Virus record (IMG/VR): IMGVR_UViG_2875713109_000001
From: a virus
Lineage: Duplodnaviria; Heunggongvirae; Uroviricota; Caudoviricetes
DNA: 64,000 bases
Strand: one strand, 5' to 3'
Position 1 is the first letter of the stretch. Each line of letters opens with the position of its first letter. Positions 3,582-60,381 of the stretch are shown here, one piece after another. The position numbers and the translations under genes are program-made. The notes below the pieces were generated by a model, which had not been told where the DNA came from, ran no database searches, and saw only the letters and a program-made list of their open reading frames with translations.

Positions 3582-3862
3582 CCCAGAAAAACAAAAACCG
3601 GCGAGAAGTTACCACGAGAACGGAAAGTAAACAAGAATACTCCCATTGACTTATATCAAATAATCAACTTTTTATAAGCTATCCCTAACTTATTGTGTAT
3701 AGCTGAAAAGTCAGAGATAAGTTCACCATCTGCATTATTTCTTAAGTTAATAGTTTATTGCTAACTTAATTTATGTATCGACTATTGATATCCATCTTAA
3801 AGTAACAATATCCCTCTGCATTATTTTTCATCACAAATAATACATCTATTGCACTACGCTCA

Positions 3863-3879
3863 CCTGCTCTAATAAATTT
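3863..3879 (+). promoter_or_regulatory. C1 repressor operator-like site upstream of immI
   Basis: cctgctctaataaattt, 15/17 match to ATTGCTCTAATAAATTT motif that recurs at more than 15 places in the window. Confidence 0.6.
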
Positions 3880-4066
3880 GTATTTTTAAGTCGCGAATGC
3901 TATCTTTTCGCATCATATTGACCTTTTAATCGTTCAGGCTTATAGTTTCGCCGTCGTAGCAAATTCTGCGACCAGGTTTGACAGCCTGAATGATTGTGCG
4001 GACAACCGCAGATTTCCGATATTGCGGTATTTTTGTGTCCGTTAAACCGCGTTACGCCCAAATTAT

Positions 4067-4143
4067 GGTGGGGCGTGATGGGGAGGCTTCGGCCTGCTGG
4101 TTTCACAATCGCCAGTCTGTCAACCCTGTCACGTCCTGCCACC
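4067..4143 (+). ncRNA. c4: c4-like antisense regulatory RNA (about 77 nt)
   Basis: Structured segment closed by ggtgg/ccacc with UUCG hairpin; internal cacaatc and caacc are complementary to gattgtg and ggttg found both upstream (3972-3999) and at the icd RBS (4146-4183), the a/b target layout expected for c4. Confidence 0.45.
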
Positions 4144-4193
4144 TGTTTGACAGCGGGTAGCAGGTTGTTAAACCTGATTGTGAGGCCGTAACT

Positions 4194-4415
4194 ATGGTTA
4201 ATGCCAATCCTTGCGCACGCCCAGAATTCATCTGGCGTTTCTATTCCTGTAAAAAACACCACTATCACTTCGTTATCGCAGCAACTGAAGACGAAGCACG
4301 CTCTCAATTGCCTGATGGCCCCTGCATTTTTACTGCCCGTTTTTCAACTAACTCGCGCAATTCACTTAGTTACTGGAGCCTCCCCTTCTCTGCCGACGTT
4401 CAGGGGGGTTTATGA
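4194..4415 (+). CDS. icd: Icd-like small protein (73 aa)
   Basis: 73-aa ORF directly upstream of and overlapping (ATGA) the antirepressor gene; paralog at 50988-51209. Confidence 0.65.
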   Translation: MVNANPCARPEFIWRFYSCKKHHYHFVIAATEDEARSQLPDGPCIFTARFSTNSRNSLSYWSLPFSADVQGGL

Positions 4416-5446
4416 AAACACCTCTCGTCACCCGTAATGAAATAGCCGAAGCGATCGCCTTGCATACTGCCTGTATGCCGACACGGGAGATCCCCGGCGC
4501 AATTGCTAACTATTTCATGATAACCAGACGTTTTTATACCCGAACAGATAAGGCTGTGATCAACAGGCTACTGATAGCCGAGATCAGGGATTATTTGATT
4601 GAACAAGGACGTCTACGTTACGCAACAGTGGCAGCAGAAATGAGAAAGGAGGCACATAGAATGACCGGTAATAATTTAAATGTTGAAAAACCAGCACCTG
4701 TTGCTTCAGCTACGCCAGCACCAGCCCTGAATGTCATCCCCAACACCGGAGACACAATCGACAGCCAAACATTGTTGAAGATGGTCAATGAGGCACGGAA
4801 ATTATGTAGCGAAAAACCAGTTCGCAACAATGATTTCATTGCCAGAGTTAAGGATGAGCTTGAAGGAGAAACCTACGAAATTTTCGTAGGTCAAAAAAAC
4901 GGCGCAGAAATAGATATTATAACCATGACCTACAAACAAGCCCTGCGAGTTGCCGCGCGCGAGTCAAAAGCGGTCCGCCGTTCGCTGATCGACAAACTGG
5001 AAGAATTGCAGCAGGCAAACTCCCCTACCCCATCGATCCCCCAAACATTACCAGAAGCTCTACGCCTGGCTGCCGAGTTGGCAGAACAGAAAATGCAGTT
5101 GGAACAACAGCTGGTGGCCGCAGCCCCTAAAGTCGATTTTGCCGACCGGGTATCAGTGGCCAATGGAATCCTGATCGGGAACTTTGCAAAGGTCGTTGGA
5201 CTTAAGCAAAACGCCCTTTTCTCATGGTTGCGCCAGAACGGCATTCTCATGGCTTTTGGTGCGCGCAAAAACGTACCGCGCCAACAGTACATCAACGCCG
5301 GGTATTTCACAGTGAAAGAAGTGGTGCTGGATGATGAAAATGGCTACCAGATACGGCTGACGCCCCAATTAACGGGTAAAGGCCAGCAGTGGTTAACTCG
5401 CAAGCTACTTGATGCTGGTTTGTTAAAACCAGTAGCAATAGGTTAA
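4412..5446 (+). CDS. ant: antirepressor Ant (Rha-like middle region, KilA-C-type C-terminal domain)
   Basis: 344 aa; C-terminal about 130 aa shared with KilA (5611-6411) and with the 371-aa paralog at 51206-52321; immI position after c4-like RNA and icd. Confidence 0.75.
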   Translation: MKTPLVTRNEIAEAIALHTACMPTREIPGAIANYFMITRRFYTRTDKAVINRLLIAEIRDYLIEQGRLRYATVAAEMRKEAHRMTGNNLNVEKPAPVASATPAPALNVIPNTGDTIDSQTLLKMVNEARKLCSEKPVRNNDFIARVKDELEGETYEIFVGQKNGAEIDIITMTYKQALRVAARESKAVRRSLIDKLEELQQANSPTPSIPQTLPEALRLAAELAEQKMQLEQQLVAAAPKVDFADRVSVANGILIGNFAKVVGLKQNALFSWLRQNGILMAFGARKNVPRQQYINAGYFTVKEVVLDDENGYQIRLTPQLTGKGQQWLTRKLLDAGLLKPVAIG

Positions 5447-5458
5447 CAAAAGAAAAAA

Positions 5459-5484
5459 ACCTGCCAGCAAACTGGCAGGTTTCT
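5459..5484 (+). terminator. intrinsic terminator-like hairpin after ant
   Basis: acctgccag-caaa-ctggcaggt stem-loop followed by TTCT, preceded by A-run. Confidence 0.45.
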
Positions 5485-5524
5485 GAGCAGATCGTCCAAC
5501 CCGATCTGGATCGAGTCAGAAAAA

Positions 5525-5541
5525 TTTGCTCTAATAAATTT
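5525..5541 (+). promoter_or_regulatory. C1 operator-like site upstream of kilA-repL
   Basis: tttgctctaataaattt, 16/17 match to operator motif, about 70 bp upstream of kilA ATG. Confidence 0.65.
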
Positions 5542-5610
5542 CGTTTTCTAAGTGCAAAGAATCACCATTTCGAGCTGGTGATTGAAGGTTGATGCAAATT
5601 TGGAGAAAAA

Positions 5611-6411
5611 ATGCAACAAACATTCAATGCGGATATGAATATATCAAACCTTCATCAAAATGTCGATCCTTCAACCACTCTGCCTGTTATTTGTGGTGTT
5701 GAAATTACGACCGACCGCGCTGGCCGTTACAACCTTAATGCTCTACACAGAGCGAGCGGACTCGGTGCCCATAAAGCGCCAGCTCAATGGCTAAGAACGC
5801 TGTCAGCCAAACAGCTCATTGAAGAGCTTGAAAAAGAAACTATGCAGAATTGCATAGTTTCGTTCGAAGGCCGTGGCGGCGGCACTTTTGCACATGAATT
5901 GCTCGCAGTGGAGTACGCAGGTTGGATTTCTCCCGCGTTTCGGCTGAAGGTAAACCAGACATTTATCGACTATCGAGCTGGAAGATTACAACCTGCTATT
6001 CCGCAGAGCCTCCCAGAAGCTCTCCGTTTGGCTGCTGACCTGGCAGAGCAAAAGCAACGGCTGGAGCAAAAAATGCTGATGGATGCACCTAAAGTCGAAT
6101 TCGCCGAACGCGTTGCTACCGCCAGCGGGGTTCTAATCGGCAACTATGCCAAAGTGCTCGGCCTGGGCCAAAACTATCTCTTCACCTGGTTGCGTGATAA
6201 CGGAATTCTGATCGCAACCGGTGAACGCAGGAACGTCCCCAAACAAGAATACATATCCCGTGGGTATTTCACCCTTAAAGAAACCGTGATCGATACAAGC
6301 AATGGAAGCAGGATTTCTTTCACGACTCGTATAACCGGCAAAGGTCAGCAGTGGCTGATGAAGCGATTGCTTGATGCTGGTGTGCTGGTACCTGTCGCGG
6401 CAACGCGCTAA
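5611..6411 (+). CDS. kilA: KilA (KilA-N domain plus KilA-C domain)
   Basis: 266 aa as in P1 KilA; N-terminal KilA-N-like region; C-terminal domain homologous to Ant C-terminus; GGAGAAAAA SD. Confidence 0.8.
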   Translation: MQQTFNADMNISNLHQNVDPSTTLPVICGVEITTDRAGRYNLNALHRASGLGAHKAPAQWLRTLSAKQLIEELEKETMQNCIVSFEGRGGGTFAHELLAVEYAGWISPAFRLKVNQTFIDYRAGRLQPAIPQSLPEALRLAADLAEQKQRLEQKMLMDAPKVEFAERVATASGVLIGNYAKVLGLGQNYLFTWLRDNGILIATGERRNVPKQEYISRGYFTLKETVIDTSNGSRISFTTRITGKGQQWLMKRLLDAGVLVPVAATR

Positions 6412-6440
6412 CAGACGTAGTAAGAACCACCAGCATTGTA

Positions 6441-7286
6441 ATGCTGGCTAAAGTCACTTTCCTGAGCTGTATAACGATGAGCGATTTTACTTTTTCTGGC
6501 TATGAATTGGCTTGCTTTGTAACACACTCCGGTCTATCCCGTAGCGCCGGGCATATCCTGTCGCAATGTGCAAATCTCGCGGCAACAACCAGTGAATACT
6601 TCATTCACAAGCCTCACCGCTTGATCGCGGCAGAAACTGGTTATAGCCAATCAACCGTCGTTCGTGCATTCCGTGAAGCTGTAAACAAAGGAATCCTGTC
6701 TGTAGAGATTGTTATCGGCGATCACCGTGAACGTCGCGCTAACCTGTACCGGTTTACACCATCCTTTTTGGCCTACGCACAACAAGCCAAAAATGCGCTG
6801 ATTGAAAGCAAATTAAAGATCTCTTCAGCCGCAACCAAGGTTAAAGCTGTTCTCGCTAAGACATTGGCTTTATTTAATTTTTTATCCACACCCCCATGTC
6901 AAAATGATACCCCCTCCCCCTGTCAGGATGACGTGGCAATAAAGAATAAGAAGTCACAAGTTAAAAAAACAAAAAGATCAGTTTCCGGCGGTGCCGGAAC
7001 GACCAGACTCAAAAAATTGACTTCATGGATCGCTGAGGCAAAAGCAAAGGCTGACAATCTGCGGTTATCCAAAAAACGCGCTCAAAAACATGAGTTCAAG
7101 CAGAAAGTAGAGGCGGCAGCGCGGAAATATGCTTACCTGAAGAACAAGCGTTCTCCTGATATTGACGGGGTATCAAACTTCGATAATTTGCCGCATTGCA
7201 TGACGGTAAACGAAGCTCTTAATGCGGTTTTAGCCAAAAATAAAGATAACGAACAATGGGGTATACCGGCAGGATTCAGAGGGTAA
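6441..7286 (+). CDS. repL: RepL lytic-replicon initiator (oriL expected inside the gene)
   Basis: 281 aa, size and position immediately after kilA match P1 RepL; basic K/R-rich middle region; alternative start at 6477. Confidence 0.7.
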   Translation: MLAKVTFLSCITMSDFTFSGYELACFVTHSGLSRSAGHILSQCANLAATTSEYFIHKPHRLIAAETGYSQSTVVRAFREAVNKGILSVEIVIGDHRERRANLYRFTPSFLAYAQQAKNALIESKLKISSAATKVKAVLAKTLALFNFLSTPPCQNDTPSPCQDDVAIKNKKSQVKKTKRSVSGGAGTTRLKKLTSWIAEAKAKADNLRLSKKRAQKHEFKQKVEAAARKYAYLKNKRSPDIDGVSNFDNLPHCMTVNEALNAVLAKNKDNEQWGIPAGFRG

Positions 7287-7454: not shown

Positions 7455-8159
7455 ATGTTGAACCGAAGAACATTTAATGTATTCTGCGATGAATCCTGTC
7501 ACCTACTAAATGATCATAATAAAGTCATGGTATTGGGTGCGCTTTGGTGCCCTGGCACTATCACAAAAAAAATTGCTAGAGACATCAAGGAATTAAAATT
7601 AAAACACAATCTAAAACCTGATTTCGAAATCAAGTGGACTAAAGTATCTGCGTCCAAGGTTGAATTTTACTTAGATGTCGTAGATTACTTCTTCAGCAAC
7701 CCAGCATTGCGCTTTAGAGGTGTTGTTGTTCCTGATAAAGAGCAACTGGACCATGCTCGATTCCATCAAGATCATAATACTTTCTATTATAAGATGTTTT
7801 TTTATGTCTTAAAAAACATAATAGAAAGTAACAACACATACAATATCTACCTAGATATAAAAGATACTTTAGGTATTGAAAAAATTGAGAAATTAAGAGG
7901 AGTTCTTCACAATGATCGCTATGATTACAATCATGAGTCGATAAACAGAATTCAACATATACGATCTCATGAAGTGCAACAATTGCAGCTAACGGATCTT
8001 TTCATTGGTGCGTTAGGCTACGTTCATCGAGGAATGAATAGCAACGCGGGAAAAATCCAAGTCATAAACAGGATAAAATCACATACAAACAGGGATTTAC
8101 TAAAAAGCACTCTTCCAACAGAAAGTAAATTTAATATTTTCGTGTGGGAGGCTCGCTGA
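7455..8159 (+). CDS. DUF3800-like protein (234 aa), AT-rich cargo gene
   Basis: ORF with GTGGAG SD; N-terminal FNVFCDESCH and C-terminal QLQLTDLFIGAL resemble the conserved ends of DUF3800 proteins (from memory, not searched); local GC far below flanks. Confidence 0.5.
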   Translation: MLNRRTFNVFCDESCHLLNDHNKVMVLGALWCPGTITKKIARDIKELKLKHNLKPDFEIKWTKVSASKVEFYLDVVDYFFSNPALRFRGVVVPDKEQLDHARFHQDHNTFYYKMFFYVLKNIIESNNTYNIYLDIKDTLGIEKIEKLRGVLHNDRYDYNHESINRIQHIRSHEVQQLQLTDLFIGALGYVHRGMNSNAGKIQVINRIKSHTNRDLLKSTLPTESKFNIFVWEAR

Positions 8160-14756: not shown

Positions 14757-15722
14757 TTATTCCCCAGCAGACATTTTCCCAATGATTTTTTTTATTGCTT
14801 CGTCAATTTCAGTTTGCACTTCAGACGGGAGTCTGGAGAACTCGTAGGCGACTACCCGTTTTTTCGGATCAGACTTCTTTCTGGCGTATTGACGACGGTC
14901 AGAGAAGTCTCGCAGCTTCTCAACCACCACAGATTTAACCGGCGCGGGCTTCAGGCTTTTGCTTTCCGCTTTGAAGATAGCCAGTATCTTCGCTTTATCC
15001 TCTTTCGCGCCCTCAGTCTCTGCAATTCGTTCGCGCACCGTATCAACCAGCTCTTCAATAGGTACGCTTTTAGCGTTGGCATCCTCGGAGATCTGGAGCA
15101 GTAACTGGTAATCTGGCAGGGCGAGATCGCTGGCAACAGGGAAGACAGCAATCATCTCATCCGGCACCGCTGCCGCCTGGAACGCGCGCGTAACTTTAGC
15201 CTTTGAAATGTTCTCAGCGCGGGCGATCTCTTCTTTGGTCATGCTCTTACCATACATAACCTCGAAGCGTTTACCCAGTTCGCGCAGGGTGTGTTCGCGG
15301 GCTGTCTGGATATCAATGGCCAGCTGGCGTGCATCCGCCAGGCTGATCTCATCTTTCGTCACCAGAATCTCAAATTTCGTTTCATTAAAGATACACGCAG
15401 CGCGGCGACGTGATCCGTCCAATACCTCAATGCGCTCCCCAACCATACGACCGATAGCCGGGAAGAACTGTTGCAATTTAATGGTGCGGGAAATATCGCT
15501 TACCGACTCAGGGGTGAGCAGAGACTGATCGCGGCCGTTAACTGCCGGGTCAACGAACGTGCGCGACTCAATCTCACCACTCAGCACAACGGTAAGCAAA
15601 AATTTAGCCTGGCGGCCAGATTTTAGGGTAAAGGTTTTGGTGCCTTCACTGCCTTCAAGCATGCGAGCAAACTCGGAGCTATTCTTGCCCAGCACTCGTC
15701 CACGGGAAACTATTTTTTTCAT
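14757..15722 (-). CDS. parB: ParB partition protein
   Basis: 321 aa immediately downstream of and overlapping parA; position between parA and centromere-like region. Confidence 0.75.
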   Translation of the reverse strand: MKKIVSRGRVLGKNSSEFARMLEGSEGTKTFTLKSGRQAKFLLTVVLSGEIESRTFVDPAVNGRDQSLLTPESVSDISRTIKLQQFFPAIGRMVGERIEVLDGSRRRAACIFNETKFEILVTKDEISLADARQLAIDIQTAREHTLRELGKRFEVMYGKSMTKEEIARAENISKAKVTRAFQAAAVPDEMIAVFPVASDLALPDYQLLLQISEDANAKSVPIEELVDTVRERIAETEGAKEDKAKILAIFKAESKSLKPAPVKSVVVEKLRDFSDRRQYARKKSDPKKRVVAYEFSRLPSEVQTEIDEAIKKIIGKMSAGE

Positions 15723-16930
15723 GCCGCCTCACCCCTAACAAACTCAATTCGATCAAACACAGCCTTAGTGAAACGCTCGGCCTCGGTTCGTGCCTTCTTC
15801 AGCGCCTCTGCGCTGCCTGGATACGATTGCGGGTTGGCACTGATTACGGTGTCGAAAGACTCGCCGCATCGCTCAAATCCATCCAGACGAGGCAGAGAAG
15901 AGTCCAGAATGTTGCTGGCGTAAACCTCACGCGCAAGGCTGTGTGATGTCTCGTGATCGCGCTTGCCGGTCATCTTCGACATAAAACCAATGCTGGCGCT
16001 TAAACGCGGTTCTACGCCTTCCTCCTCCAGTTGCTCCAGCATTTCTGGCAGACGGGTGAGATATTTCAGTGTTGAGTGGAAGTCAACCTGGGCTGGTGGG
16101 GTAGGGGTAAGCAGCAAATCGCTGGCCGCCAGACCGTTGAGCAGGAACGGATCCAGGTGTGGACCGGTATCAATAAAGATAAAGTCATAATCATCCGCAA
16201 CACGATCAATGATATTGCGTCGAAGGATTTCGTACTGATTTTGTCCGGGAAGATGCTCTTCAACCAGCTCTTTCCATTGGCTGGCAACAAAGCCATCGTC
16301 GATAGAGGCTGGAATCACGTCTACGCCAGGAACGATGGTCGGACGAATCACCTCTTTGCGTAGCGTCTCCGCGTCCAGGTCGTTCAGCATCGCCTGCGCA
16401 GCGGTTTCCAGGATGGAACCAATACTGTGAGTATGGTCGAGGAACATTGTGCTGGATGCCTGAGGGTCAAGGTCAATTACCAGAATACGCAGATCGTGAC
16501 GCAGTAAATCCTGATGCACACGCAGAGCGTGCGCCAACGTGACTGTGGAAACCGTTTTGGATACGCCACCCTTCAGGTTTACGACAAAAATAACGTAAGG
16601 CGATTTGTGAATGTCGCGATATTTTGGGATCTTACGGTGGGCATAGATATCAATGACGTTCTGGATGGTCAGCGCGTACTGTTCAACGTTACCGACCTGT
16701 TTCTTGTTGAACTGGTACCCATTATCTTCCATCTCTTTGATGGCCTGCTCCACAATGCGGCGGCTCAGCTTCGGCAACTTTGCCACAGCGTTACGAGTGA
16801 ACGTCTGATAATACTCGGTCTGATTGAACTCTTTGCGCTGATCTTCAATATCCTGACTCATGGCCTTAAGTAATGCGCTTGCACGAAGAGCTATGGTGCC
16901 GACACCGCCGTAATCGCGTTTCATCATCAT
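15719..16930 (-). CDS. parA: ParA partition ATPase
   Basis: Deviant Walker A KGGVSKT in YVIFVVNLKGGVSKTVSTVTLAHA; recognisable but diverged similarity to recalled P1 ParA (e.g. LPRLDGFERCGESFDTVISANP conserved). Confidence 0.85.
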   Translation of the reverse strand: MMMKRDYGGVGTIALRASALLKAMSQDIEDQRKEFNQTEYYQTFTRNAVAKLPKLSRRIVEQAIKEMEDNGYQFNKKQVGNVEQYALTIQNVIDIYAHRKIPKYRDIHKSPYVIFVVNLKGGVSKTVSTVTLAHALRVHQDLLRHDLRILVIDLDPQASSTMFLDHTHSIGSILETAAQAMLNDLDAETLRKEVIRPTIVPGVDVIPASIDDGFVASQWKELVEEHLPGQNQYEILRRNIIDRVADDYDFIFIDTGPHLDPFLLNGLAASDLLLTPTPPAQVDFHSTLKYLTRLPEMLEQLEEEGVEPRLSASIGFMSKMTGKRDHETSHSLAREVYASNILDSSLPRLDGFERCGESFDTVISANPQSYPGSAEALKKARTEAERFTKAVFDRIEFVRGEAA

Positions 16931-17038
16931 CTCCTTATCATTTCGTATGAGTGAATTGTACGTTTGATTCTGCTACGTGCAACTTATTTTGATTTGTGCG
17001 TAAATTATTGCACGTAAAAAATGGCGATGAGGCTATTA

Positions 17039-17323
17039 GATGTGTGCTGGAGGGATGATGCAGGACCAGAATGTGCGATAGAGGGAAGTCGCATTGAATT
17101 ATGTGTTGTGGAGGGATCGCTGGTATCAAATATGTGCGCTGAAGGGAAAGATAGAAGATTAGATGTGCGCTGGAGGGAAACTTGGATGGTTAGATGTGTG
17201 CTGGAGGGAATGTCTGGGCAAACTGCGTGGCGCAACCCTCCAGCGCACACCAAAAACAGGAAAATGGGCAGGCATTCCCGGCAGCGCACATTTTTCAAAT
17301 GCAGCTGCCCTCCAGCACACACT
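17039..17323. repeat. incA iteron array (9 copies of 19-bp RepA-binding repeat, 6 forward and 3 inverted)
   Basis: Repeats of GATGTGTGCTGGAGGGAAA-like units directly downstream of repA. Confidence 0.75.
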
Positions 17324-18183
17324 TATTCGGGAAGTTTCAGCTTTGGATTGCGAGAATGGACGATTACAAAACTTTCCCGGCCTTTCTTCTCAATTGAACA
17401 GTCGAGATAGCCGATTGTTTTAAGCTGTTCTATCGCTTTCTTAATGATACGGTTTTGCTCGCCAACAGCTGACTGCAAAGCCAGGCGCTCACGGATTCGC
17501 GCGAACGATAGCGGCAACGGGTTCTGCGGAAGGCTTTCGATGAAAGTGTAAATGGCTTGTGCAGCTTCTTTCTTCGGAAGGGCACGCAAGGCGTGGTGTT
17601 GCAACAGAACGCGATAATCAAGCTGGAACAGCTCCCAGAGCTTCGAATCGGCCTCCAGCTCTATCAGATCAAGGTCAGCATCAAAACGCCCGACCTTCAG
17701 CAGACCAGTCTGATAGCCGCCTTTAGCATCTTTTCCGCGCTTAAAAGCGATACCCTTGTTACGCAAGCGTCCAAGTGATTCATGAATGGTTAAACGCAGT
17801 TTCGCATCCAGACGTTTTGAGGGGAAACCACAGGCTTTAGCGAACTCCTGAAACGATAACTGGATGGTGTTTGAAGACAAGCCGTATTTGCTGAACGCGT
17901 AGATGACACCGATCCACGTTTTGAAATCAGTATCCATATCGAGTCGAGGACCGGTGATTTTAATATCATCGTAACCCTCGGCTTTAGCTATCTCCAGCTG
18001 GGAAAACGCTTTGGTGGCATCAATCTCTTTACTTTCTCCTTTGCTCTTTGATGGCTTCGGCACGAATACCCCCAAGCGCATCAACGCTACAGGCTGCACA
18101 GTGTTGTTTGAATTAACTGTTAGTTCTTTTGCCTTACTTTCAATGTCTGCGTAAAGAATATCGGAGATAAATGATTGATTCAT
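17323..18183 (-). CDS. repA: RepA plasmid replication initiator
   Basis: 286 aa as in P1 RepA; flanked by 5 iterons upstream and 9 downstream, with DnaA boxes and GATC cluster upstream. Confidence 0.85.
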   Translation of the reverse strand: MNQSFISDILYADIESKAKELTVNSNNTVQPVALMRLGVFVPKPSKSKGESKEIDATKAFSQLEIAKAEGYDDIKITGPRLDMDTDFKTWIGVIYAFSKYGLSSNTIQLSFQEFAKACGFPSKRLDAKLRLTIHESLGRLRNKGIAFKRGKDAKGGYQTGLLKVGRFDADLDLIELEADSKLWELFQLDYRVLLQHHALRALPKKEAAQAIYTFIESLPQNPLPLSFARIRERLALQSAVGEQNRIIKKAIEQLKTIGYLDCSIEKKGRESFVIVHSRNPKLKLPE

Positions 18184-18240
18184 ATTACTTTTTCCGAATT
18201 ATGTGGATAGTTTTTATAAGTGGTGATAACTACCCAGGCT

Positions 18241-18343
18241 TTCCCGTCAGCACACATCCTATATCCCGCCAGCACACATTAGCAACCCGTCAGCACACAT
18301 TTTTATCCCTCCAGCACACATCGTTTTCCCTCCAGCACACATC
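18241..18343. repeat. incC iteron array (5 direct 19-bp repeats) of oriR
   Basis: Five tandem TTTCCCTCCAGCACACATC-like units upstream of repA start. Confidence 0.75.
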
Positions 18344-18374
18344 GCGATACACTTCTAAGCCAGACGTGGCGCGG

Positions 18375-18460
18375 CCTGCAACGATCAGGGATCTATATGG
18401 ATCTAATTGGGATCTGTATGGACCTAATTATTGGATCTACCCAGTGGATAATGTGGATAA
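18375..18460. other. oriR accessory region: five GATC sites and two DnaA boxes
   Basis: GATC at 18383, 18390, 18400, 18411, 18434; agtggataa and tgtggataa (TTATCCACA reverse) at 18442-18460. Confidence 0.6.
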
Positions 18461-18500
18461 GTGAAAAACCGGCCAACATAGCCGGTTGGAAGGAAGGGTA

Positions 18501-18893
18501 TTATTCTACGCTTTCGATAAGAAGACCATGTTCATAACATTTAAGCTCATCGCCTTCGTACAGGAATTGGTATCCAATACCACCATTTTCATGGACATTA
18601 GGGAATAACTCATAACTCACTGAAGAGCAAATCACACCAATGCAGCGATCAACGCCTTCTCGTCCTTCAGTGCTGAAAAAATCCTCTTCGGTAAGAACAT
18701 GAGTACATTGCTCATCAGCATAGGTCGGAAATACATGCTCGATGCAATCCGGGTGTTTTAAACCAAGCTGATCGGCAAGCTCGAAAGCATGACGGTATTG
18801 TTCAGATCCTGGCTTGCCAACAGTGATGTGCTCAATTTTGTAGATTGAAGTCGCTTTGTTGATAGTTTTCTTTACTGTTACTTTATCAGACAT
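18501..18893 (-). CDS. hypothetical protein (130 aa)
   Basis: ORF downstream of spanin-like pair on minus strand. Confidence 0.4.
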   Translation of the reverse strand: MSDKVTVKKTINKATSIYKIEHITVGKPGSEQYRHAFELADQLGLKHPDCIEHVFPTYADEQCTHVLTEEDFFSTEGREGVDRCIGVICSSVSYELFPNVHENGGIGYQFLYEGDELKCYEHGLLIESVE

Positions 18894-20614: not shown

Positions 20615-20694
20615 GTCATCACCAATTATTTGCTCTGGTTTTCGTTATTTTAACTTAGGTTACTTGTGGTCTACATGGTGTTAACTATTAAATA

Positions 20695-20711
20695 ATTGCT
20701 CTAATAAATAT
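20695..20711 (+). promoter_or_regulatory. C1 operator-like site upstream of hrdC-dmt operon
   Basis: attgctctaataaatat. Confidence 0.65.
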
Positions 20712-20782
20712 TGTTTTTTATGTCGTGTTTTCGGTACCATTCAGCCATCGCCCTTCAATGGGTATTTGTTTGGAGTCGTCAG

Positions 20783-21067
20783 ATGCAGATGGAGCTAATA
20801 AGCCGCAAAGAGTTCGATAGCCGTGTAACCAGCGGTGAACTCGACAACTTGCAGGCTATCAAGGTGAAAGAAGGCTTTTGCCTCATTGGGAATCAGAGCG
20901 GAACAAATCGCGTTTTTATGCTTCGCCGTACGGATTTGAAGCCATTTGTCTGGAAGAACGAAATTGGTCCCAGCTCATACGCTCAAACTAGGGGGTGCCT
21001 CAACCTGGCCTTTTTCTACAAAAACGAGCTTTCTGTGGTTGATATTCAAGGGTTACAACATGTTTAA
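20783..21067 (+). CDS. hypothetical small protein (94 aa)
   Basis: ATG 20783 with GGAG SD; first gene after operator; overlaps hrdC start. Confidence 0.4.
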
Positions 21068-21965
21068 GCACTGGAAAAACATTACTATTTTTAAACTTTC
21101 TCGTGAGGCGGATCTGACCGACTTGGAAGATAAAAAGAAAATGATCCTTTTCACGCCATGCGGTAGTCAGGATATGGCCAAGTTCGGTTTTGTATCTCCA
21201 TTTGGTGATAATTCCGAAGTTATCGCTATGCATGGAAATGGTTTTATCCTTGTTGAAGCAAAGCGCGAAACAAAAATTCTTCCCCCGCCGGTTATCCAGC
21301 GAGCTATTCAAGAAAAAATTGAAAAACTCGAGCAAGAACAAGCGCGTAAACTGAAGAAAACAGAGAAGGACTCCCTGAAAGACGAAGTTCTGCATTCTCT
21401 TCTGCCACGGGCTTTTTCAAAGTTCTCTGTTATCCAGGCGATCTACGACGGTTCAACTAAACGTATCTATATCAATGCCAGCGCGCGGCAGGCAGAGGAT
21501 ATGCTCGCGCTTATGCGTAAATCTCTGGGTTCTCTTCCTGTTGTTCCCCTAAGTGTTGAAAATCCCATTGAATTAACGCTGACCGACTGGGTACGTGATG
21601 GTAGTGCTCCACAGGGATTTCAAATGGGGGATGCGGCAGAACTTAAGGCAGTGCTTGAGGATGGCGGTATTGCCCGAGTGAAAAAGCAGGACTTGGGAAG
21701 TGATGAAATATCCACACACCTGGAAGCTGGCAAGCTCGTCACTAAGTTGGCACTCGACTGGCAGAACCGCATTAAATTTACACTGGACCATAACTTCAGC
21801 CTTACCAGCGTCAAATTTGCGGATGAATTGCTTGAGCAGAACGCTGATATTGATAGTGAAGATGTTGCGCAGCGACTGGACGCAGATTTCTTCCTGTTGA
21901 CCAGTGAAATTTCGTGCCTGGTTGATGCTCTGGTAAATGCCCTTGGTGGAGAGGCTAAGCAGTGA
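21059..21965 (+). CDS. hrdC: RdgC-like recombination-associated protein
   Basis: Strong similarity to recalled E. coli RdgC along full length ([13 protein letters not shown]..., KILPPPVI..., [35 protein letters not shown]). Confidence 0.8.
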
Positions 21966-24226
21966 AAGAGCTGTGCTATGGATCTGTTTGCAGTGGAATT
22001 GAAGCCGCGAGTATTGCCTGGGAACCGTTGGGTATGCGTCCGGCGTGGTTTGCTGAAATCGAGCCTTTTCCATCTGCCGTTCTTGCGCACCGCTGGCCCC
22101 ATGTCGCCAACCTTGGCGACATGACAAAACTTGCCAAAAAAGTCCTGGCTGGGGAAATCGAATCCCCTGATGTGCTCGTCGGGGGAACACCTTGTCAGGC
22201 ATTCAGTATCGCTGGATTACGTGGTGGGCTTGATGATGAGCGTGGCGCGCTAACTTTAAAGTATGTGGAGCTTGCAAATGCAATTGACGACAAACGGGCT
22301 GAGTCATTTCTCAAACCAGCCGTTATCGTCTGGGAAAATGTCCCAGGAGTCTTGTCATCGGCAGATAACGCCTTCGGATGTTTCCTTGCCGGATTGGCTG
22401 GAGAAGATGCGCCATTTGAACCAGGTGATCGACCTGAATCAGGAAAAAGTAACGCGTTCTGGCGGTGGGATGGCAAAACCGGTTGCCATGCTCCAAAGTG
22501 GCCGCAGTGTGGTTGTATTTATGGACCGCAGCGAAAGGTGGCCTGGAGAATCCTTGATGCCCAATACTTCGGAGTGGCACAACGACGCCGACGCGTGTTT
22601 GTTGTCGCAAGTGCTCGAACAGACCTCGATCCCGCAACGGTACTTTTTGAGTTCGAAGGCGTGCGCCGGGATATTGCGCCGAGCCGAAAAAAGAAGGAAA
22701 TCGCTTCCGCCATTATTGCAAATGGCGCTGCAATCAGTGGCGAAAGCCTAAATCCATGCCTACATGCTGACATGCCACCCGGTATGAAATCGACGAAAGC
22801 CGTAAACGCTTTCAGGATGGCAGCATTTGGGGAATATATTGACGATGAAACCGCATCGACAGTAAAGGCAAGAGATTTTAAAGATGCCACTGACCTTGCC
22901 GTTTTTAGCAGCACAGGAGCAGCTTTTTGGTCAGAAGGGCATGGTACATTGCGGGCACGTGAGCAAGAAAGCCATGAGCATCTTGTTACATTGGCTTTTC
23001 CTGAGCGTATGAGCGGTACACAACATGCTGCAACTAAGAATACTTCACCATCTCTAATGGCTAAAAATCCAACAGCTGTTTGCTATGAAGTAAGAAACGC
23101 AGAAGTAGCTGTCCGCCGTCTTACCCCTGTCGAATGTGAAAGGCTGCAAGGTTTTCCTGATGGGCATACGTTGATCCCGACGGAAAAGCGTAAAAAAGTT
23201 AGTTCAGATGAACTGGCATATCTTCGCAATCACTATCCAGATTTAAGCGAAGAAGAGGCCGTGATGCTTGCAGCTGACGGACCGCGTTACAAAGCGATCG
23301 GCAATAGTATGGCAATACCAGTAATGCGCTGGATTGGCGATCGGATTACTAAGGCCGTATGTCGGCAGAAAGAAGGAAGTGAAACAAAAGAGCGAAAAGT
23401 TAAACCAGCGGCAGAATTCGAACGGTCCATATTCAAATGGGCTGGTGGAAAATTTGGTGTTCTGGAACAAATCTTTCGCTATTTGCCAGAAGGGAAGCGC
23501 CTGATTGAACCTTTCGTTGGTGGCGGAGCTGTCTTCATGAATGCCGGATACCAGGAAAATCTGCTAAATGATGTGAATGCTGACCTGATTAACTTTTACA
23601 AGACTCTGCAACGCGAGGCGCATTCACTTATCACTCTGGCACATCGTTTTTTCCTGGACTACAACACCCAGGAGGGATACTTGGCAGTACGGAATGCGTT
23701 TAACAAACAAGTCTATGATGATTTACATCGCGCAGCGGCGTTTTTGTTCCTGAACCGACATTGTTTTAACGGATTGACGCGTTACAACCAGGCCGGTGAG
23801 TTCAATGTCGGTTATGGGAAGTATAAAACTCCGTATTTCCCATTACAGGAGATGGAAGCCTTCCTCGGTGCGGAAGGGCGGTCTGAGTTTGTATGCGGTG
23901 ATTTTGCAGCGGTGATTGAAGCTGCCGGAGAAGGAGATGTCATCTTTTGCGATCCGCCGTATGAACCGCTCCCCAATACAGAGGGGTTCACGAACTATTC
24001 CGGTCATGACTTTAAGTTTGAAGAGCAAAAACGCCTGGTGTCTCTGTTGACGGATGCTCATCGTCGAGGTGCAAAGGTTCTCATTACTAACAGTGGCGCG
24101 CCAAACATCAGAGAGCTTTATCATGACAGTGGCTTCAGAGTGGAACCTCTTTTTGCCAGACGTTCTGTGTCTTGTAAGGGGGACACTCGAGGTGTAGCTC
24201 ATGACGTTTTGGGTATATTGCTCTAA
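21962..24226 (+). CDS. dmt: bifunctional DNA methyltransferase Dmt (N-terminal C5-cytosine MTase-like, C-terminal Dam-like N6-adenine MTase)
   Basis: 754 aa; [12 protein letters not shown] and ENVPG (C5 motifs IV and VI); C-terminal [13 protein letters not shown]..., DPPY (IFCDPPYEP). Confidence 0.85.
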
Positions 24227-24899: not shown

Positions 24900-24975
24900 G
24901 ATGGTGTAGCTCAGCGGTTAGAGCGGTTGACTGTTAATCAACGGGTCGATGGTTCAAATCCATCCACCATCGCCA
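24900..24975 (+). tRNA. tRNA-Asn (anticodon GUU)
   Basis: Cloverleaf folded by hand: acceptor gatggtg/caccatc, anticodon stem gttga/tcaac with loop ctGTTaa, T-arm gatgg-ttcaaat-ccatc, 3' CCA encoded. Confidence 0.85.
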
Positions 24976-24977
24976 AT

Positions 24978-25053
24978 GCCGGTTTAGCTCAGTTGGTAGA
25001 GCGCCTGCCTTGTAAGCAGGATGTCAGCGGTTCGAGTCCGTTAATCGGCACCA
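24978..25053 (+). tRNA. tRNA-Thr (anticodon UGU)
   Basis: Acceptor gccggtt/aatcggc, D-arm gctcagttggtagagc, anticodon stem cctgc/gcagg loop ctTGTaa, T-loop ttcgagt, CCA encoded. Confidence 0.85.
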
Positions 25054-26857: not shown

Positions 26858-26933
26858 GGCCCTTTAGCTCAGTGGTTAGAGCTGGCGACTCATAATCGCA
26901 CGGTCACCGGTTCAAGTCCGGTAGGGGCCACCA
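26858..26933 (+). tRNA. tRNA with CAU anticodon, Ile2 (ileX)-type
   Basis: Near-identical over most positions to recalled E. coli tRNA-Ile2; acceptor ggccctt/aggggcc, anticodon loop ctCATaa, CCA encoded. Confidence 0.8.
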
Positions 26934-27219
26934 TATTTGGTTGTAACACGGCGTCTGGCACATGCGTCGTTAGCGGTCTGGTGACGTTAAAAGGGGGGAA
27001 CCTTGCCCCTAGCTCAGGCAACGAACCAGGTAGCCGGAATGTGCAAGCCACCGTTTGTTGTTTCTCGGGTAAAGGGATTCACCATCCTGGCGATTCGGTG
27101 TGACAGCCGGGAAGAGTCCGGCGCATTAATCCTGATTTTCTGGTGATGACTCATATCGTTAGGAGTGATTTGAGTATGCCGATTATATCTGACATTCAGC
27201 ACGCCTGGGTGGAGTGCTA

Positions 27220-28584
27220 ATGTCTGCATCCCCTCTTGAATCCATGCCAAATTCCCTTAGTGCAGAACAAGCTGTACTTGGTGGCTTAATGCTTGATAAC
27301 TGCCGCTGGGATGAAGTTGCAGATCGTATAGTTGCTGATGATTTTTATACCAGTGCTCATCGTGAAATTTTCAGTGAGATGGAGAGGTTATTAAGTCATG
27401 GCAAACCGATTGATTTGATAACACTTGCTGAAGCACTTGAACAGAACGGTAAATTAGAACGCGCCGGTGGTTTTGCGTACCTTGCGGAGATGTCAAAGAA
27501 CACGCCCAGCGCGGCAAATATTTGTGCTTATGCGGATATCGTTCGTGAACGCGCGGTTGTTCGTGAAATGATTTCCGTCGCAAATGAAATAGCCGAAGCT
27601 GGATATGCGCAGGATGGCAGGGGCAGCAATGAATTGCTAGATATGGCCGAGCGCCGCGTTTTTGAAATAGCTGAAAAACGACAAAAGAGCGGTAGTGGTC
27701 CAAAAGATATCGCCAGCATTCTCGATGCAACGGTATCTCGCATAGAAGAGTTGTTTCAGCGACCACATGATGGTGTAACGGGGCTTGATACGGGATTTAC
27801 CGATCTCAATAAGAAGACGGCAGGGCTTCAGCCGTCCGATCTCATCATTGTCGCCGCCCGCCCATCTATGGGGAAGACCACGTTTGCGATGAATCTCGTC
27901 GAAAATGCCGCAGTTCGTAACGATAAGCCCGTATTGGTTTTTAGCCTTGAGATGCCGAGCCACCAGCTGATGATGCGCTCACTGGCTTCTCTTGCACGCG
28001 TTGATCAGACTCGTATTCGGACAGGGCAACTTAACGACGAGGATTGGGCGCGGGTTTCTGGCGCAATGGGTATTCTGTTGGACAAGCAGAATATTTTTAT
28101 TGATGACTCAAGCGCCCTGACACCTACAGAGCTTCGTTCCCGCGCTCGTCGTGTTTATAAAGAAAATGGTGGTTTGAGCATGATTATGATCGACTACCTG
28201 CAACTTATGCGCGTCCCCGAGCTGCAAGATAACCGAACGCTGGAAATTGCCGAGATTTCTCGCTCACTGAAGGCGTTGGCGAAGGAATTACAAGTACCGG
28301 TGGTGGCATTGTCACAACTTAATCGATCGCTTGAACAGCGTGCGGACAAACGACCGGTAAATTCAGATTTACGTGAATCAGGAGCAATTGAGCAGGACGC
28401 AGACCTGATCATGTTTCTGTATCGCGACGAAGTTTATCACCCGGATAGCGAAATGAAGGGCATTGCCGAGGTAATTATCGGAAAGCAACGAAATGGCCCA
28501 ATTGGCACGGTGAGATTGGCTTTTAACGGCCAATACTCACGGTTTGATAACTATGCTGGTGCTGACTGGCAAGAGGATTATTAA
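27220..28584 (+). CDS. ban: DnaB-family replicative helicase Ban
   Basis: DnaB N-terminal domain and RecA-like domain with Walker A PSMGKTTF; GGTGGAG SD before ATG 27220 (track start 27214 is GTG). Confidence 0.85.
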   Translation: MSASPLESMPNSLSAEQAVLGGLMLDNCRWDEVADRIVADDFYTSAHREIFSEMERLLSHGKPIDLITLAEALEQNGKLERAGGFAYLAEMSKNTPSAANICAYADIVRERAVVREMISVANEIAEAGYAQDGRGSNELLDMAERRVFEIAEKRQKSGSGPKDIASILDATVSRIEELFQRPHDGVTGLDTGFTDLNKKTAGLQPSDLIIVAARPSMGKTTFAMNLVENAAVRNDKPVLVFSLEMPSHQLMMRSLASLARVDQTRIRTGQLNDEDWARVSGAMGILLDKQNIFIDDSSALTPTELRSRARRVYKENGGLSMIMIDYLQLMRVPELQDNRTLEIAEISRSLKALAKELQVPVVALSQLNRSLEQRADKRPVNSDLRESGAIEQDADLIMFLYRDEVYHPDSEMKGIAEVIIGKQRNGPIGTVRLAFNGQYSRFDNYAGADWQEDY

Positions 28585-50628: not shown

Positions 50629-50631
50629 AAA

Positions 50632-50648
50632 CTTGCTCTAATAAATTG
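50632..50648 (+). promoter_or_regulatory. C1 operator-like site upstream of second immI-like module
   Basis: cttgctctaataaattg. Confidence 0.6.
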
Positions 50649-50851
50649 TGTTTTTTGACTGCCGATGTTACATTGAACCTGACCTCTTGCGCCTTGAGGC
50701 ATTTTCGGTTTATGCTTATCAGGCACCTCATTAAAACGGGTGCCGGGATTGGAACCCCGGATAATGCAAAAGGCGACACAGACGCCAAAAGCGTCTTTTT
50801 TTGTGTCATGCCATCGCACAGCCATACGTAGCACATAGCTCCGAGATCAAT

Positions 50852-50926
50852 GGTAGTGCTGGCTGGGCTGCCGAAAGGCAGGCCGGTTCCCTTTTGCGCC
50901 GGTAGTTCCAACCCAGTCAGTGCTAC
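50852..50926 (+). ncRNA. second c4-like structured RNA (tentative)
   Basis: About 75 nt closed by ggtag/ctacc with GAAA-loop hairpin ctgcc-gaaa-ggcag; same position relative to the icd-like gene as 4067-4143. Confidence 0.3.
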
Positions 50927-50987
50927 CGCCATTGAGATTGGAACCTCACGCGGTAGCTCCTTAAGTTAGCAAAAGGAGGCTGCCATT

Positions 50988-51209
50988 GTGGCTACTATCC
51001 CTACCCCTGCTCATCCTGAATTTATCTGGCGCTTTTACTCCTGCCAAAAACGTCACTATCACTTCGTTATTGCACCGACAGAAGATGAGGCACGTTCTCA
51101 GCTTCCTGACGCCCCATGTATTTTCTCTGCCCGTTTTTCCACTGATTCACGCAATTCTCTCAGTTACTGGTGCCTCCCTGTTAACGCTTCTGCTCTGGAG
51201 GGGCTATGA
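50988..51209 (+). CDS. Icd-like small protein, second copy
   Basis: 73 aa, about 70% identical to 4194-4415 product; GTG start 8 nt after AAAAGGAGG. Confidence 0.6.
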   Translation: MATIPTPAHPEFIWRFYSCQKRHYHFVIAPTEDEARSQLPDAPCIFSARFSTDSRNSLSYWCLPVNASALEGL

Positions 51210-52321
51210 GAACATCATTAGTCACCCGTAAAGAAATGATCGAGGCAATTGAACAGCACACTGCCTGTATCAGTACCAGGGATATACCTGGCGTTATTGC
51301 CAACTACTTCATGATCACCAAACAACTTTACCGGAGAAAGGACAAAAACGCGGTTCACCGCATTCTGCTAACCGATATCCGTGAATACCTGCTCGAACAG
51401 GGTCATCTGAATTACGCAACCGTCGCAGCCGAAGCACGCAAGGAGGCACACAGAATGAAAGCAACTAACGTTAAATCAGAAAAAACTCATGCACCTTCAG
51501 TTCAGGAATCGGAGCTGGTGGTTGTTCAGAATCAGTCTGATGAAATTCCCGTTCTGGAATGGCTGGGAGTGCGTGTAGTGACAACTAAGATCCTTGCTAA
51601 GGGGTATGGGACAGATGCGGATAACATCAAGAAGAACTTTTCCCGTAATGCTGAACGTTTTTGTGAAGGCAAGCATTTCTATAAAGTTATTGGAGATGAT
51701 TTGAACAATTTGCGGGTGACTTTAAGTAACTCACAAAATCCTATCTCTCCTAAAGCCCGCTCACTCATCCTCTGGACGGAACGCGGCGCAGCCCGCCACG
51801 CTAAAATGATCGAAACCGATCAGGCATGGGCATTCTTTGAAAAACTGGAAGACAGCTACTTCCGACAAAAAGAACAGCAACCGATCGCAATCCCCCAGAC
51901 GCTTCCAGAAGCTCTGCGCCTTGCTGCCGAACTGGCTGAACAAAAGCAACTTCTGGAACAGAAAGCCCATCAGCTAAATCAGCAGCTGGTGGCCGCAGCC
52001 CCCAAAGTCGATTTTGCCGACCGGGTATCAGTGGCTAAGGGGATCCTGATTGGGAATTTTGCAAAGGTCGTTGGACTTAAACAAAATGCGCTGTTTGCCT
52101 GGTTACGGGAGAACGGCATTCTGATAGCGTCCGGCGGCCGTAAAAATGTACCGTTCCAGCAGTACATAAACGCCGGATATTTCACAGTGAAAGAAGTGGT
52201 GCTGGATGATGAAGAGGGCTACCAGATACGGCTGACGCCCCAATTAACGGGGAAAGGCCAACAGTGGTTGACGCGTAAACTGCTCGATGCTGGCTTGTTA
52301 AAACCGGTGGCGGCTGAATAA
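51206..52321 (+). CDS. antirepressor-like protein, second copy (ORF6N-like middle domain, KilA-C C-terminus)
   Basis: 371 aa; N- and C-terminal regions homologous to Ant, different central domain; ATG overlaps icd-like stop. Confidence 0.7.
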   Translation: MRTSLVTRKEMIEAIEQHTACISTRDIPGVIANYFMITKQLYRRKDKNAVHRILLTDIREYLLEQGHLNYATVAAEARKEAHRMKATNVKSEKTHAPSVQESELVVVQNQSDEIPVLEWLGVRVVTTKILAKGYGTDADNIKKNFSRNAERFCEGKHFYKVIGDDLNNLRVTLSNSQNPISPKARSLILWTERGAARHAKMIETDQAWAFFEKLEDSYFRQKEQQPIAIPQTLPEALRLAAELAEQKQLLEQKAHQLNQQLVAAAPKVDFADRVSVAKGILIGNFAKVVGLKQNALFAWLRENGILIASGGRKNVPFQQYINAGYFTVKEVVLDDEEGYQIRLTPQLTGKGQQWLTRKLLDAGLLKPVAAE

Positions 52322-52328
52322 TGGAAGA

Positions 52329-52350
52329 ATGCCCGGTTGATGCCGGGCAT
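52329..52350. terminator. bidirectional terminator-like hairpin between convergent ant-like and c1
   Basis: atgcccgg-ttgatg-ccgggcat. Confidence 0.45.
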
Positions 52351-52353
52351 AAT

Positions 52354-53205
52354 TTATTGCGCGCTTTCGGGGTTGTCGTTTACTGGCTGCCCCTTCTTGG
52401 TTTTACGGCTGCGCGTAACTGATGCGGCTGACTTAACCTTTTTCTCTTCGCGAGTGATGGCAATTTGTTTTTTTACATTTTCAATATCTGCCAGGCGATA
52501 TATTTTTGCTTGTGGCCAGCGGTCGCAGATGATCGGTTCTATGGAGTCATAAAGGCTAAATTTTGCTTTTTCGAATTCACCGTTGATGATGATTCCATCA
52601 CGGAGAGTTTCATCGCAGATAAACACGCCACACAGCGGTACATGGTAACTAACTGATTTACCATCATTGTAGTTAGGGCTACTGGAGATGTAGTGGACGC
52701 GCAGCATTGTTTCGCTAAAGCCGTGTACACGCATACGGAATTTTTCATCCTCCGGGTACTGCCTCATTAGCTCTTTTGTTGCTTCCAGGTTCTCTATGTA
52801 TTTCGCACTGTGCTCATTGATCCCCGCGCTTTTTTGGATGCGAATGTCCTTATCAATCAGATGAATAATGCGGCCAGCGGTCATGTTGACGCTGTTCACA
52901 GCTTCTGTCTGATAAGTTGTAACCTTGCGCACACCGCGAAGGATGTTAGGCACTGGATATAAAATAGTCTTTGGGATATTGAGGTCTGGGTACTGTTCCA
53001 GTTCCCGCGCCATTAAAGTCCATTTATCAATTTCAGCCTGAATGCTGTCAGTTTCTTTGAACGGTAGAACGACAACCGGGCGTACAGGACGACCGTCGCT
53101 GGCTGTATCAACGTGTTGGGCGCGTGCAACAGCTTTTTTTAGAAAGAGATCCCTGAAGCTGACGAACTCCTGGTACAGTTGTTCGCCGTAGACATAATTT
53201 ATCAT
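52354..53205 (-). CDS. c1: C1 master repressor
   Basis: 283 aa as in P1 C1; GGAGGAGG SD; genome carries many copies of its operator motif. Confidence 0.9.
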   Translation of the reverse strand: MINYVYGEQLYQEFVSFRDLFLKKAVARAQHVDTASDGRPVRPVVVLPFKETDSIQAEIDKWTLMARELEQYPDLNIPKTILYPVPNILRGVRKVTTYQTEAVNSVNMTAGRIIHLIDKDIRIQKSAGINEHSAKYIENLEATKELMRQYPEDEKFRMRVHGFSETMLRVHYISSSPNYNDGKSVSYHVPLCGVFICDETLRDGIIINGEFEKAKFSLYDSIEPIICDRWPQAKIYRLADIENVKKQIAITREEKKVKSAASVTRSRKTKKGQPVNDNPESAQ

Positions 53206-60379: not shown

Positions 60380-60381
60380 GA

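Follow-up and report, generated by a model that had tools for sequence, protein, structure and literature searches.

Direct repeats in an RCS47-like P1 phage-plasmid appear to be the conserved ends of two c4-icd-ant operons and sites of module exchange

The direct repeats considered here lie in a viral record of IMG/VR (IMGVR_UViG_2875713109_000001), of which a stretch of 64,000 nucleotides (the window) was analysed. A first-pass annotation had drawn attention to long repeats shared by the antirepressor gene ant, a second ant-like gene some 47 kb away, and kilA, and had proposed them as substrates for RecA-mediated deletion or module exchange on a circular replicon. Among phage records, the best megablast match to the surroundings of both the first gene (3600-6500; 98.3% identity over 100% of the query) and the second (50500-53300; 96.0% over 100%) is Escherichia phage RCS47, followed in the ranking by phi456, P7, SJ46, JL22, and P1. 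These matches to RCS47, P1, and P7 assign the window, by sequence, to a P1-like phage-plasmid (Punavirus) of the RCS47 kind.

The first of the two genes is part of an operon, c4-icd-ant1, whose features are collected in Table 1. Its leader carries the elements a1 (TTGACAG, 3978-3984) and b1 (GATTGTG, 3992-3998), both read from the sequence, so that the Rfam match (3940-3992) ends inside b1. The C4 antisense RNA gene that follows has two loops, b' (TCACAATC, 4103-4110) and a' (CTGTCAA, 4117-4123), and the downstream target of b', b2, overlaps the GAGG Shine-Dalgarno sequence of icd. The stop codon of icd in turn overlaps the start of ant1 (ATGA), and within ant1 the sequence points to a nested start of the Ant2 type at 4661, where AAGGAGG precedes an ATG at codon 84. 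No Pfam match at E<=0.01 was obtained for the middle of Ant1. Operon 1 can thus be identified, feature by feature, as the classical immI operon of P1 and P7.

The second gene lies at another locus. In P1, the stop codons of pacB and c1 are 25 bp apart; here, a cassette of 1,727 bp stands in place of that spacer, with pacB (49144-50628) on one side and c1, convergent on the minus strand (52354-53205), on the other. A putative C1 operator begins 4 bp past the pacB stop codon and is followed by a leader of the isrK family, in which a1 (TTGGAAC, 50749-50755) and b1 (GCAAAAGG, 50766-50773) precede a terminator-like hairpin (50780-50796) and its T run, found by a terminator scan. The C4 gene of this operon carries b' (CCTTTTGC, 50890-50897) and a' (GTTCCAA, 50905-50911), and its b2 element overlaps the AGGAGG Shine-Dalgarno sequence of icd2. 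The ATGA overlap between icd2 and the second ant (51206-51209) and the nested start of the latter (51455, AAGGAGG then ATG at codon 84, again sequence evidence) are arranged as in operon 1. The second Ant differs in its middle part, which holds an ORF6N domain (PF10543; 65.9 bits against a cut-off of 27.8) with no such match in Ant1 or KilA; a comparison of the second Ant with solved structures returned no match. Since an operator-like site, a C4 RNA, its targets, the icd-ant overlap, and the nested start are all present, operon 2 qualifies as a complete paralogue of immI at the sequence level, and as more than an ant-like gene.

A side observation concerns the C4 gene of this second type. In RefSeq, an open reading frame (ORF) of 39 amino acids annotated as an "ash family protein" overlaps it in several related loci (L009, 2028-2147; L010, 2401-2520; L012, 20351-20470), the equivalent position in the window being about 50850-50970. 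This ORF is probably an RNA gene miscalled as a protein.

Table 1. Features of the two c4-icd-ant operons, the repeats, and kilA (positions in the window).
Feature	Coordinates	Strand	Basis or remark
C1-operator-like site CCTGCTCTAATAAATTT, head of operon 1	3863..3879	+	regex scan; matches annotated P1 Oc4 and P7 Op(c4)
c4-a1b1 leader, operon 1	3940..3992	+	Rfam RF03163, 55.2 bits
C4 antisense RNA gene 1	4061..4146	+	Rfam RF01695, 68.4 bits
a2 (4147-4153) and b2 (4176-4183) targets, operon 1	4147..4185	+	exact complements of a' and b'
icd, 73 aa	4194..4415	+	ORF; annotated icd in RCS47, P1, P7
Left repeat, copy 1 (icd and Ant N-terminus)	4221..4526	+	self-blastn
ant1, 344 aa; ANT/KilAC aa 231-333	4412..5446	+	ORF, Pfam
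Right repeat, copy 1 (linker helix and KilAC)	5036..5430	+	self-blastn
kilA (KilA-N and ANT/KilAC); KilAC part 6067-6402	5611..6411	+	ORF, Pfam
Operon 2 cassette, 1,727 bp	50629..52355	+	boundary alignment with P1
C1-operator-like site CTTGCTCTAATAAATTG, operon 2	50632..50648	+	15/17 consensus positions, akin to known operators
isrK-family leader, operon 2	50723..50801	+	Rfam RF01394, 62.4 bits
C4 antisense RNA gene 2	50846..50933	+	Rfam RF01695, 76.7 bits (gathering 45), full model 1-87
a2 (50938-50944) and b2 (50969-50976) targets, operon 2	50938..50979	+	exact 7- and 8-nt complements
icd2, 73 aa, GTG start	50988..51209	+	ORF; 71% aa identical to icd
second ant, 371 aa	51206..52321	+	ORF; ORF6N aa 117-201, ANT/KilAC aa 259-360
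Right repeat, copy 2	51890..52305 (51890-51943 and 51980-52305)	+	self-blastn
Terminator-like hairpin between second ant and c1	52329..52350		terminator scan

When the whole window is compared with itself by blastn, the direct repeat between the two ant genes is recovered, at a spacing of 46,875 bp that agrees with the 47 kb given by the first-pass annotation. It consists of two blocks set apart by a 21-bp indel (offsets 46,854 and 46,875): a short one, 5036-5089 against 51890-51943, at 81.5% identity (83% for the blastn segment 5036-5088 against 51890-51942), and a long one of 326 bp, 5105-5430 against 51980-52305, at 86.8% identity (E 6e-101). The repeat had been described as 5035-5230 paired with 51895-52090 at about 90% identity. 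It is real, but the partner had been misplaced, as the implied offset of 46,860 gives 28% ungapped identity; the identity had been set too high, since 81.5% is measured over 5036-5089 and 88% over 5105-5230; and the homology does not end at 5230 but continues for 200 bp further, to 5430. A second, weaker repeat had escaped notice altogether: 4221-4526 matches 51015-51320 at 75.5% and covers icd together with the first 38 codons of ant. Between the left and right repeats the DNA of the two ant genes is unrelated, operon 1 having an Ant1-type middle and operon 2 an ORF6N domain. The direct repeats may accordingly be described, from their position and sequence, as the conserved coding ends of two c4-icd-ant operons that flank a variable middle.

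The two ends differ in their degree of conservation. At the left end, icd is 71% and the 83-codon Ant1-specific N-terminus 65% identical at the amino acid level; synonymous divergence (dS) is about 2.0 and 1.9, respectively, i.e., saturated, and because of these values the divergence of the left repeat is old. At the right end, the 18-codon linker is 100% and the KilAC domain 91% identical in amino acids. The longest exact runs shared by ant1 and the second ant measure 36, 35, 32, 23, and 20 bp.

KilA had been included among the repeat-bearing genes, with a weaker match at 6001-6180. All three proteins indeed share the KilAC domain (PF03374; 106 bits in Ant1, 108 in the second Ant, and 112 in KilA, for a gathering cut-off of 25.3), and by tblastn these are the only three copies in the window. 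In codon-based alignments, however, the KilAC part of kilA is 62.5% identical to the ant copies in amino acids and 62-63% in nucleotides, no exact run exceeds 11-12 bp, and its sole match in the self-blastn is a 78-bp segment (5995-6072 against 51887-51964, 77%). Judged by these alignments, kilA is related to the ant copies through KilAC at the protein level only and is irrelevant at the DNA level.

Repeats can in principle mislead assemblers, and a duplicated ant might on that ground be taken for an artefact of assembly or annotation, although nothing specific points to one. The operon 2 cassette is found, in the same arrangement, in RCS47, JL22, 673R5, and 293 plasmids of PLSDB, and copies that differ by 13% and hold different middles cannot be collapsed or duplicated reads, so that this explanation has next to no probability.

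The two C4 RNAs of the window carry different a' and b' loops, each complementary to the upstream and icd ribosome-binding sites of its own operon. The typing of these loops in 79 IMG/VR loci and in reference loci yielded 14 a'/b' combinations, of which nine belong to the P1-type family, with two a' and five b' variants, and five to the isrK-type family, in which at least five combinations occur; all are perfectly compensated at the targets. Covariation was counted between a'/b' and a2/b2. In 15 relatives of the operon 1 type, 100% of the cells are paired and 8 of 15 pairs have changed on both sides; the corresponding figures for 19 relatives of the operon 2 type are 100% and 7 of 15, and slid controls gave 26-55% paired. 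The alignment of the P1 type has a mean identity of 94%, and its variation is concentrated in the six short a/b elements. These complements and covariation counts took the place of duplexfold predictions for full-length C4 against the leaders, in which cognate and non-cognate energies were similar and which were uninformative because the program ignores intramolecular structure. The comparison of relatives thus argues strongly for a P1-like mode of action of both C4 RNAs. Because each a'/b' pair complements the sites of its own operon, the two C4 locks of the window are expected to be orthogonal, on antirepressors aimed at the same C1.

The code seems to be made of separable parts. The C4 gene and four targets of operon 1 (3978-4183) combine an a element of the P1 type (CTGTCAA/TTGACAG) with a b element of the P7 type (CACAATC/GATTGTG). 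As these elements follow one another on the DNA in the order a1 b1 ... b' a' a2 ... b2, a simple hybrid between P1 and P7 would need at least three crossovers within about 210 bp. Likewise, the pacB-c1 cassette of RCS47 has an a'/b' pair that differs from that of operon 2. Other P1-like contigs carry c4-icd-ant cassettes at further sites, one of which follows the ban operon while another falls in the ref/mat-res/mod region. The cassette positions of L090 (window equivalents 29575 to 29633), L048 (57392 to 62476), and L028 are empty here. Some contigs have two or three cassettes, and the C4 types differ in 5/5 multi-cassette contigs that could be typed for more than one. Of note, the same C4 type occurs twice, 1.5 kb apart and beside a truncated ant, in L076 (IMG/VR UViG_2698536372_000019), perhaps because part of a cassette has been duplicated in tandem.

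Module exchange, one of the two fates first proposed for the repeats, finds support in the comparison with relatives of the window. Both junctions expected from a crossover in KilAC were built and searched for in PLSDB, a match being at least 80% covered: 43 plasmids have an ORF6N middle that runs into KilAC of the operon 1 type and kilA, and three have an Ant1-type middle that runs into KilAC of the operon 2 type and c1. Three-way alignments served to place the breakpoints of individual chimeras. At the immI locus of CP023961 (L010), the stretch between the C1 operator and about 51912 is operon-2-like, and what follows about 5058-5137 is operon-1-like (98.8%). The c4 of pFORC64.1 (L009) is of the isrK type; this plasmid switches to the operon 1 type inside icd, at about 4233-4283, combines an Ant1 middle with an ORF6N insert behind it, and returns to the operon 1 type at about 5104-5200, the product being a mosaic Ant of 469 amino acids. 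In the pacB-c1 locus of pLH85-a-A (L011), an Ant1-type middle stands between sequences that are operon-2-like up to about 51464 and from about 51912. All breakpoints of these three loci fall in conserved segments, the chimeras are 94-99% identical to the copies of the window on either side of a switch, and natural chimeras are also present among IMG/VR contigs.

The right repeat itself bears conversion-like marks. KilAC has an overall dS of 0.70 and a nonsynonymous divergence (dN) of 0.055, with two 20-codon blocks at 0.22 and 0.18 in dS next to neighbours at 1.2-2.3. Typing of KilAC in about 90 loci, at 51 informative sites, brought out unbroken tracts of the other copy's states in alleles otherwise of the operon 2 type (L092, L024/25/27/31, L018, and L089/90). 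Because the chimera breakpoints lie in conserved segments and the KilAC tracts resemble conversions, exchange at the conserved ends of the cassettes in relatives of this element is supported by sequence comparison. Shared ancestry together with purifying selection on a common domain, leaving the repeats without any recombinational role, would account for the presence of the same Pfam ANT domain in three proteins, for the low dN of KilAC, and for a kilA that keeps the domain at the protein level without DNA homology. It cannot, however, explain patches with a dS of about 0.2 beside a saturated icd and Ant N-terminus, chimeras that switch copy type at the edges of the repeats, or the tracts of the other copy within KilAC alleles, and it is therefore an unlikely account of the repeats.

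Shen and Huang reportedly found in 1986 that the RecBCD pathway has a minimal uninterrupted identity of about 23-27 bp. The three longest runs shared by the ant genes exceed this minimum of about 25 bp, and those between kilA and either ant fall below it. Identity too low for homologous recombination, the outcome on which the original proposal was to fall, is thus found for kilA only, the ant pair keeping its exact blocks of 32-36 bp. RecA and RecBCD would presumably take part in the exchange. A divergence of 13%, as between the ant copies, sharply lowers the frequency of RecA recombination in cells with active mismatch repair, so that events between the two ant genes are expected to be rare.

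Deletion, the other fate first proposed, would have the repeats serve mainly in intramolecular RecA-mediated recombination, giving 47-kb deletion derivatives or mini-plasmids in lysogens. The geometry would suit it, with 326 bp at 87% identity and the exact blocks just mentioned in direct orientation on a circular replicon, 46.9 kb apart, and so would the abundance of Chi sites, which had been pointed out at the outset and holds on counting: GCTGGTGG occurs 37 times in the window against 1.9 +/- 1.3 expected, and 0/100 shuffles reached 37. Chi richness is also known for P1. Yet the cassette is intact in 293 of the 803 PLSDB plasmids that match the pacB-c1 locus, the truncated cassettes that were inspected end at IS1, at IS26, or beside the insertion of a transposon or resistance gene without joining ant1, and the chimeric records are of full size, with the normal flank of their own locus. 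The junction context of a 47-kb deletion was present in none of the chimeric and truncated records inspected, and the divergence of the copies acts here as well. Several candidates had to be discarded in this search: H69-H71, H66, and phi456, in which the match to the cassette starts inside KilAC as in a crossover product, are truncations at IS1 or IS26 or beside the insertion of a transposon or resistance gene, none of which joins ant1, and the 35-kb plasmid CP088431, considered as a deletion circle, has the normal left flank of immI and not pacB.

The gene content of the two circles also speaks against this outcome. The 46.9-kb interval holds kilA, repL, parA/parB (14757-16930), and repA/oriR (17036-18551, 96% identical to P1), along with ban, late genes, phd-doc, lpa, and pacAB, and c1 lies just outside. 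The excised circle would therefore lack c1, and repA/oriR, par, and repL would be missing from the remainder. In the circle that has the replicon and no C1, the derepression of kilA, repL, and late functions would be expected, to the death of the host, and the one with C1 but neither replicon nor partition system would be expected to be lost. Considering the 293 plasmids that keep the cassette, the lack of a deletion junction, and two predicted circles that look non-heritable, RecA-mediated deletion at these repeats is not upheld, and that it should be their main role is very improbable.

The reading preferred here, with a probability of roughly 0.8, is that of an RCS47-like P1 phage-plasmid with two paralogous c4-icd-ant operons in direct orientation, whose conserved ends act as linkers for exchange and whose repeat pair is stably kept. 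Both operons follow one layout, from a C1-operator-like site through a1/b1 decoys and the C4 RNA to a2/b2 over the ribosome-binding site of icd, the icd/ant ATGA, and the nested ant start. Across the P1-like population, the conserved ends would provide the homology for swapping or converting parts of cassettes. A crossover inside a single molecule would leave two circles in place of the replicon, neither of them heritable, and the repeat pair would thereby be kept.

Several observations weigh against this reading or limit it. The heterogeneity of dS along KilAC is marginal in a codon-permutation test (p = 0.048), and the longest run of identical codons in that domain is not significant (p = 0.10). 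Recombination is read from mosaic patterns, which exchange between different co-infecting elements could explain in part. As for expression, a consensus scan detected no sigma-70 promoter for operon 2, and binding of the second Ant to the C1 repressor is itself a prediction from its sequence. Two of the Chi sites, lastly, lie at the 5' edge of the KilAC repeats, in codons (Q-L-V-A) that correspond between the two copies (5110-5117 and 51985-51992); they add little to a crossover between the ant genes because stimulation on their 5' side falls mostly in the non-homologous middle. The KilAC-side switches of L009, L010, and L011 lie within about 100 bp of homologous Chi sites, and a causal link between Chi and the breakpoints is doubtful.

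As regards the rest of the element, the closest plasmid record in PLSDB is NZ_CP062902.1 (99.3% over the pacB-c1 region), with incomplete colinearity. Variable defence cargo is represented at 57467-62343 and 40408-45325, the entry for a type III restriction-modification pair (Res of 970 and Mod of 653 amino acids) and for a stretch of about 5 kb that differs from this plasmid, which has a type I hsd system there. Downstream of repL, where P1 has rlfA/rlfB, lies a gene for a DUF3800 protein of 234 amino acids (7455-8159). Standard backbone genes of P1 include those for an RdgC homologue, of a family named recombination-associated (20946-21965), a Dcm-Dam fusion methyltransferase (21962-24226), and the DnaB-type helicase Ban (27214-28584), and three tRNA genes (24900-25050 and 26858-26930) are placed as in the tRNA region of P1. 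A 30-bp direct repeat of 96.7% identity (20691-20720 and 40215-40244) has at its centre a match to the C1 operator (ATTGCTCTAATAAATAT), and C1-operator-like 17-mers with at most three mismatches are scattered over the window, fifteen in all.

The repeats are a real feature and a largely ordinary one. As deletion substrates they matter little, the arrangement being stable and common; their interest lies in what they delimit. The gene labelled "ant" or "hypothetical" beside c1 in hundreds of P1-like plasmids, many with resistance genes, would be a complete second antirepressor operon under antisense RNA control, and exchange at the conserved ends of ant can be demonstrated. Should the two locks prove orthogonal in vivo, a lysogen with both cassettes would be protected more widely against induction by superinfecting relatives, and the phage would be able to break the immunity of a wider range of resident relatives, with a bearing on the coexistence and competition of P1-like resistance plasmids. 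The combinatorial C4 code and the distribution of cassettes over several loci and copies form a more interesting lead than the deletion repeats. It may be proposed, tentatively and at somewhat less than even odds, that two to three c4-icd-ant cassettes serve as orthogonal "immunity locks" with a two-part a'/b' code that reassorts, over at least four backbone sites, and that their conserved ends let the C4 sensor and the Ant-middle effector shuffle in an arms race of superinfection and induction.

Parts of this picture were known before: the classical immI, an "ant" insert between pacB and c1, a duplicate c4/icd in D6-like elements, and KilAC proteins with swappable N-termini. New, as judged from sequence comparison, are the identification of the pacB-c1 insert as an entire c4-icd-ant operon whose specificity is its own and covaries, and that of the repeats as conserved cassette ends to which natural chimeras and conversion tracts map. 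The nearest known system is the c4-icd-ant1/ant2 operon at immI of P1 and P7, reportedly described by Citron and Schuster in 1990 and by Heinrich and colleagues in 1995, and consulted here in the reference annotations AF234172 and AF503408. Operon 1 is the same operon, at 96-97% identity, with a C4 RNA that joins the a' of P1 to the b' of P7. Operon 2 has all its sequence-level elements (putative operator, a1/b1, C4, a2/b2, ATGA, and Ant2-type start) but sits between pacB and c1 instead of sim and kilA, has an isrK-type leader with its own terminator and an ORF6N middle in its Ant, and carries C4 loops unrelated to those of P1 and P7.

That leader recalls the isrK-orf45-anrP locus of the Salmonella prophage Gifsy-1, in which the IsrK RNA, with a Rho-independent terminator, lies upstream of the gene for the antirepressor AnrP; expression there needs RNA-RNA pairing of part of IsrK with the downstream leader, and IsrK activates anrP in trans (Hershko-Shalev et al., 2016; PMC4825925). 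Operon 2 resembles it in its isrK-family leader and in the antirepressor gene downstream. In Gifsy-1, however, a 45-codon ORF is coupled directly to anrP, the locus is described without icd, and there is no P1 C1 operator; orf45 might correspond to the C4 region. For RCS47 and pTZ20_1P, an insert of ant and two short hypothetical ORFs in the pacB-c1 interval had already been recorded (Venturini et al., 2019; PMC6906374); it is the same insert at the same site as operon 2, and a second c4/icd region had been mentioned in the D6-like pYU39_89 (PMC6799933). Each is a one-sentence record that describes neither C4 or isrK RNAs and their specificity nor a repeat relation to ant1 or chimeras.

At the level of domains, the arrangement belongs with the ANT/KilAC regulators, whose N-terminal domains Iyer, Koonin, and Aravind are said to have described in 2002 as interchangeable. 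The conserved C-terminal KilAC here has ORF6N, the Ant1 middle, and KilA-N as alternative partners, and the shuffling is visible at nucleotide resolution within one phage lineage. In Listeria, the KilAC domain of AriS inhibits the SOS response (Azulay et al., 2022; PMC9043618). The modular theory of temperate, lambdoid phages holds that mosaic exchange occurs at conserved linker sequences, and the breakpoints of the recombinants found here likewise coincide with short conserved segments beside variable modules. In contrast to lambdoid linkers, these segments are the ends of coding domains and are present two or three times per replicon, which places donor and recipient on the same molecule.

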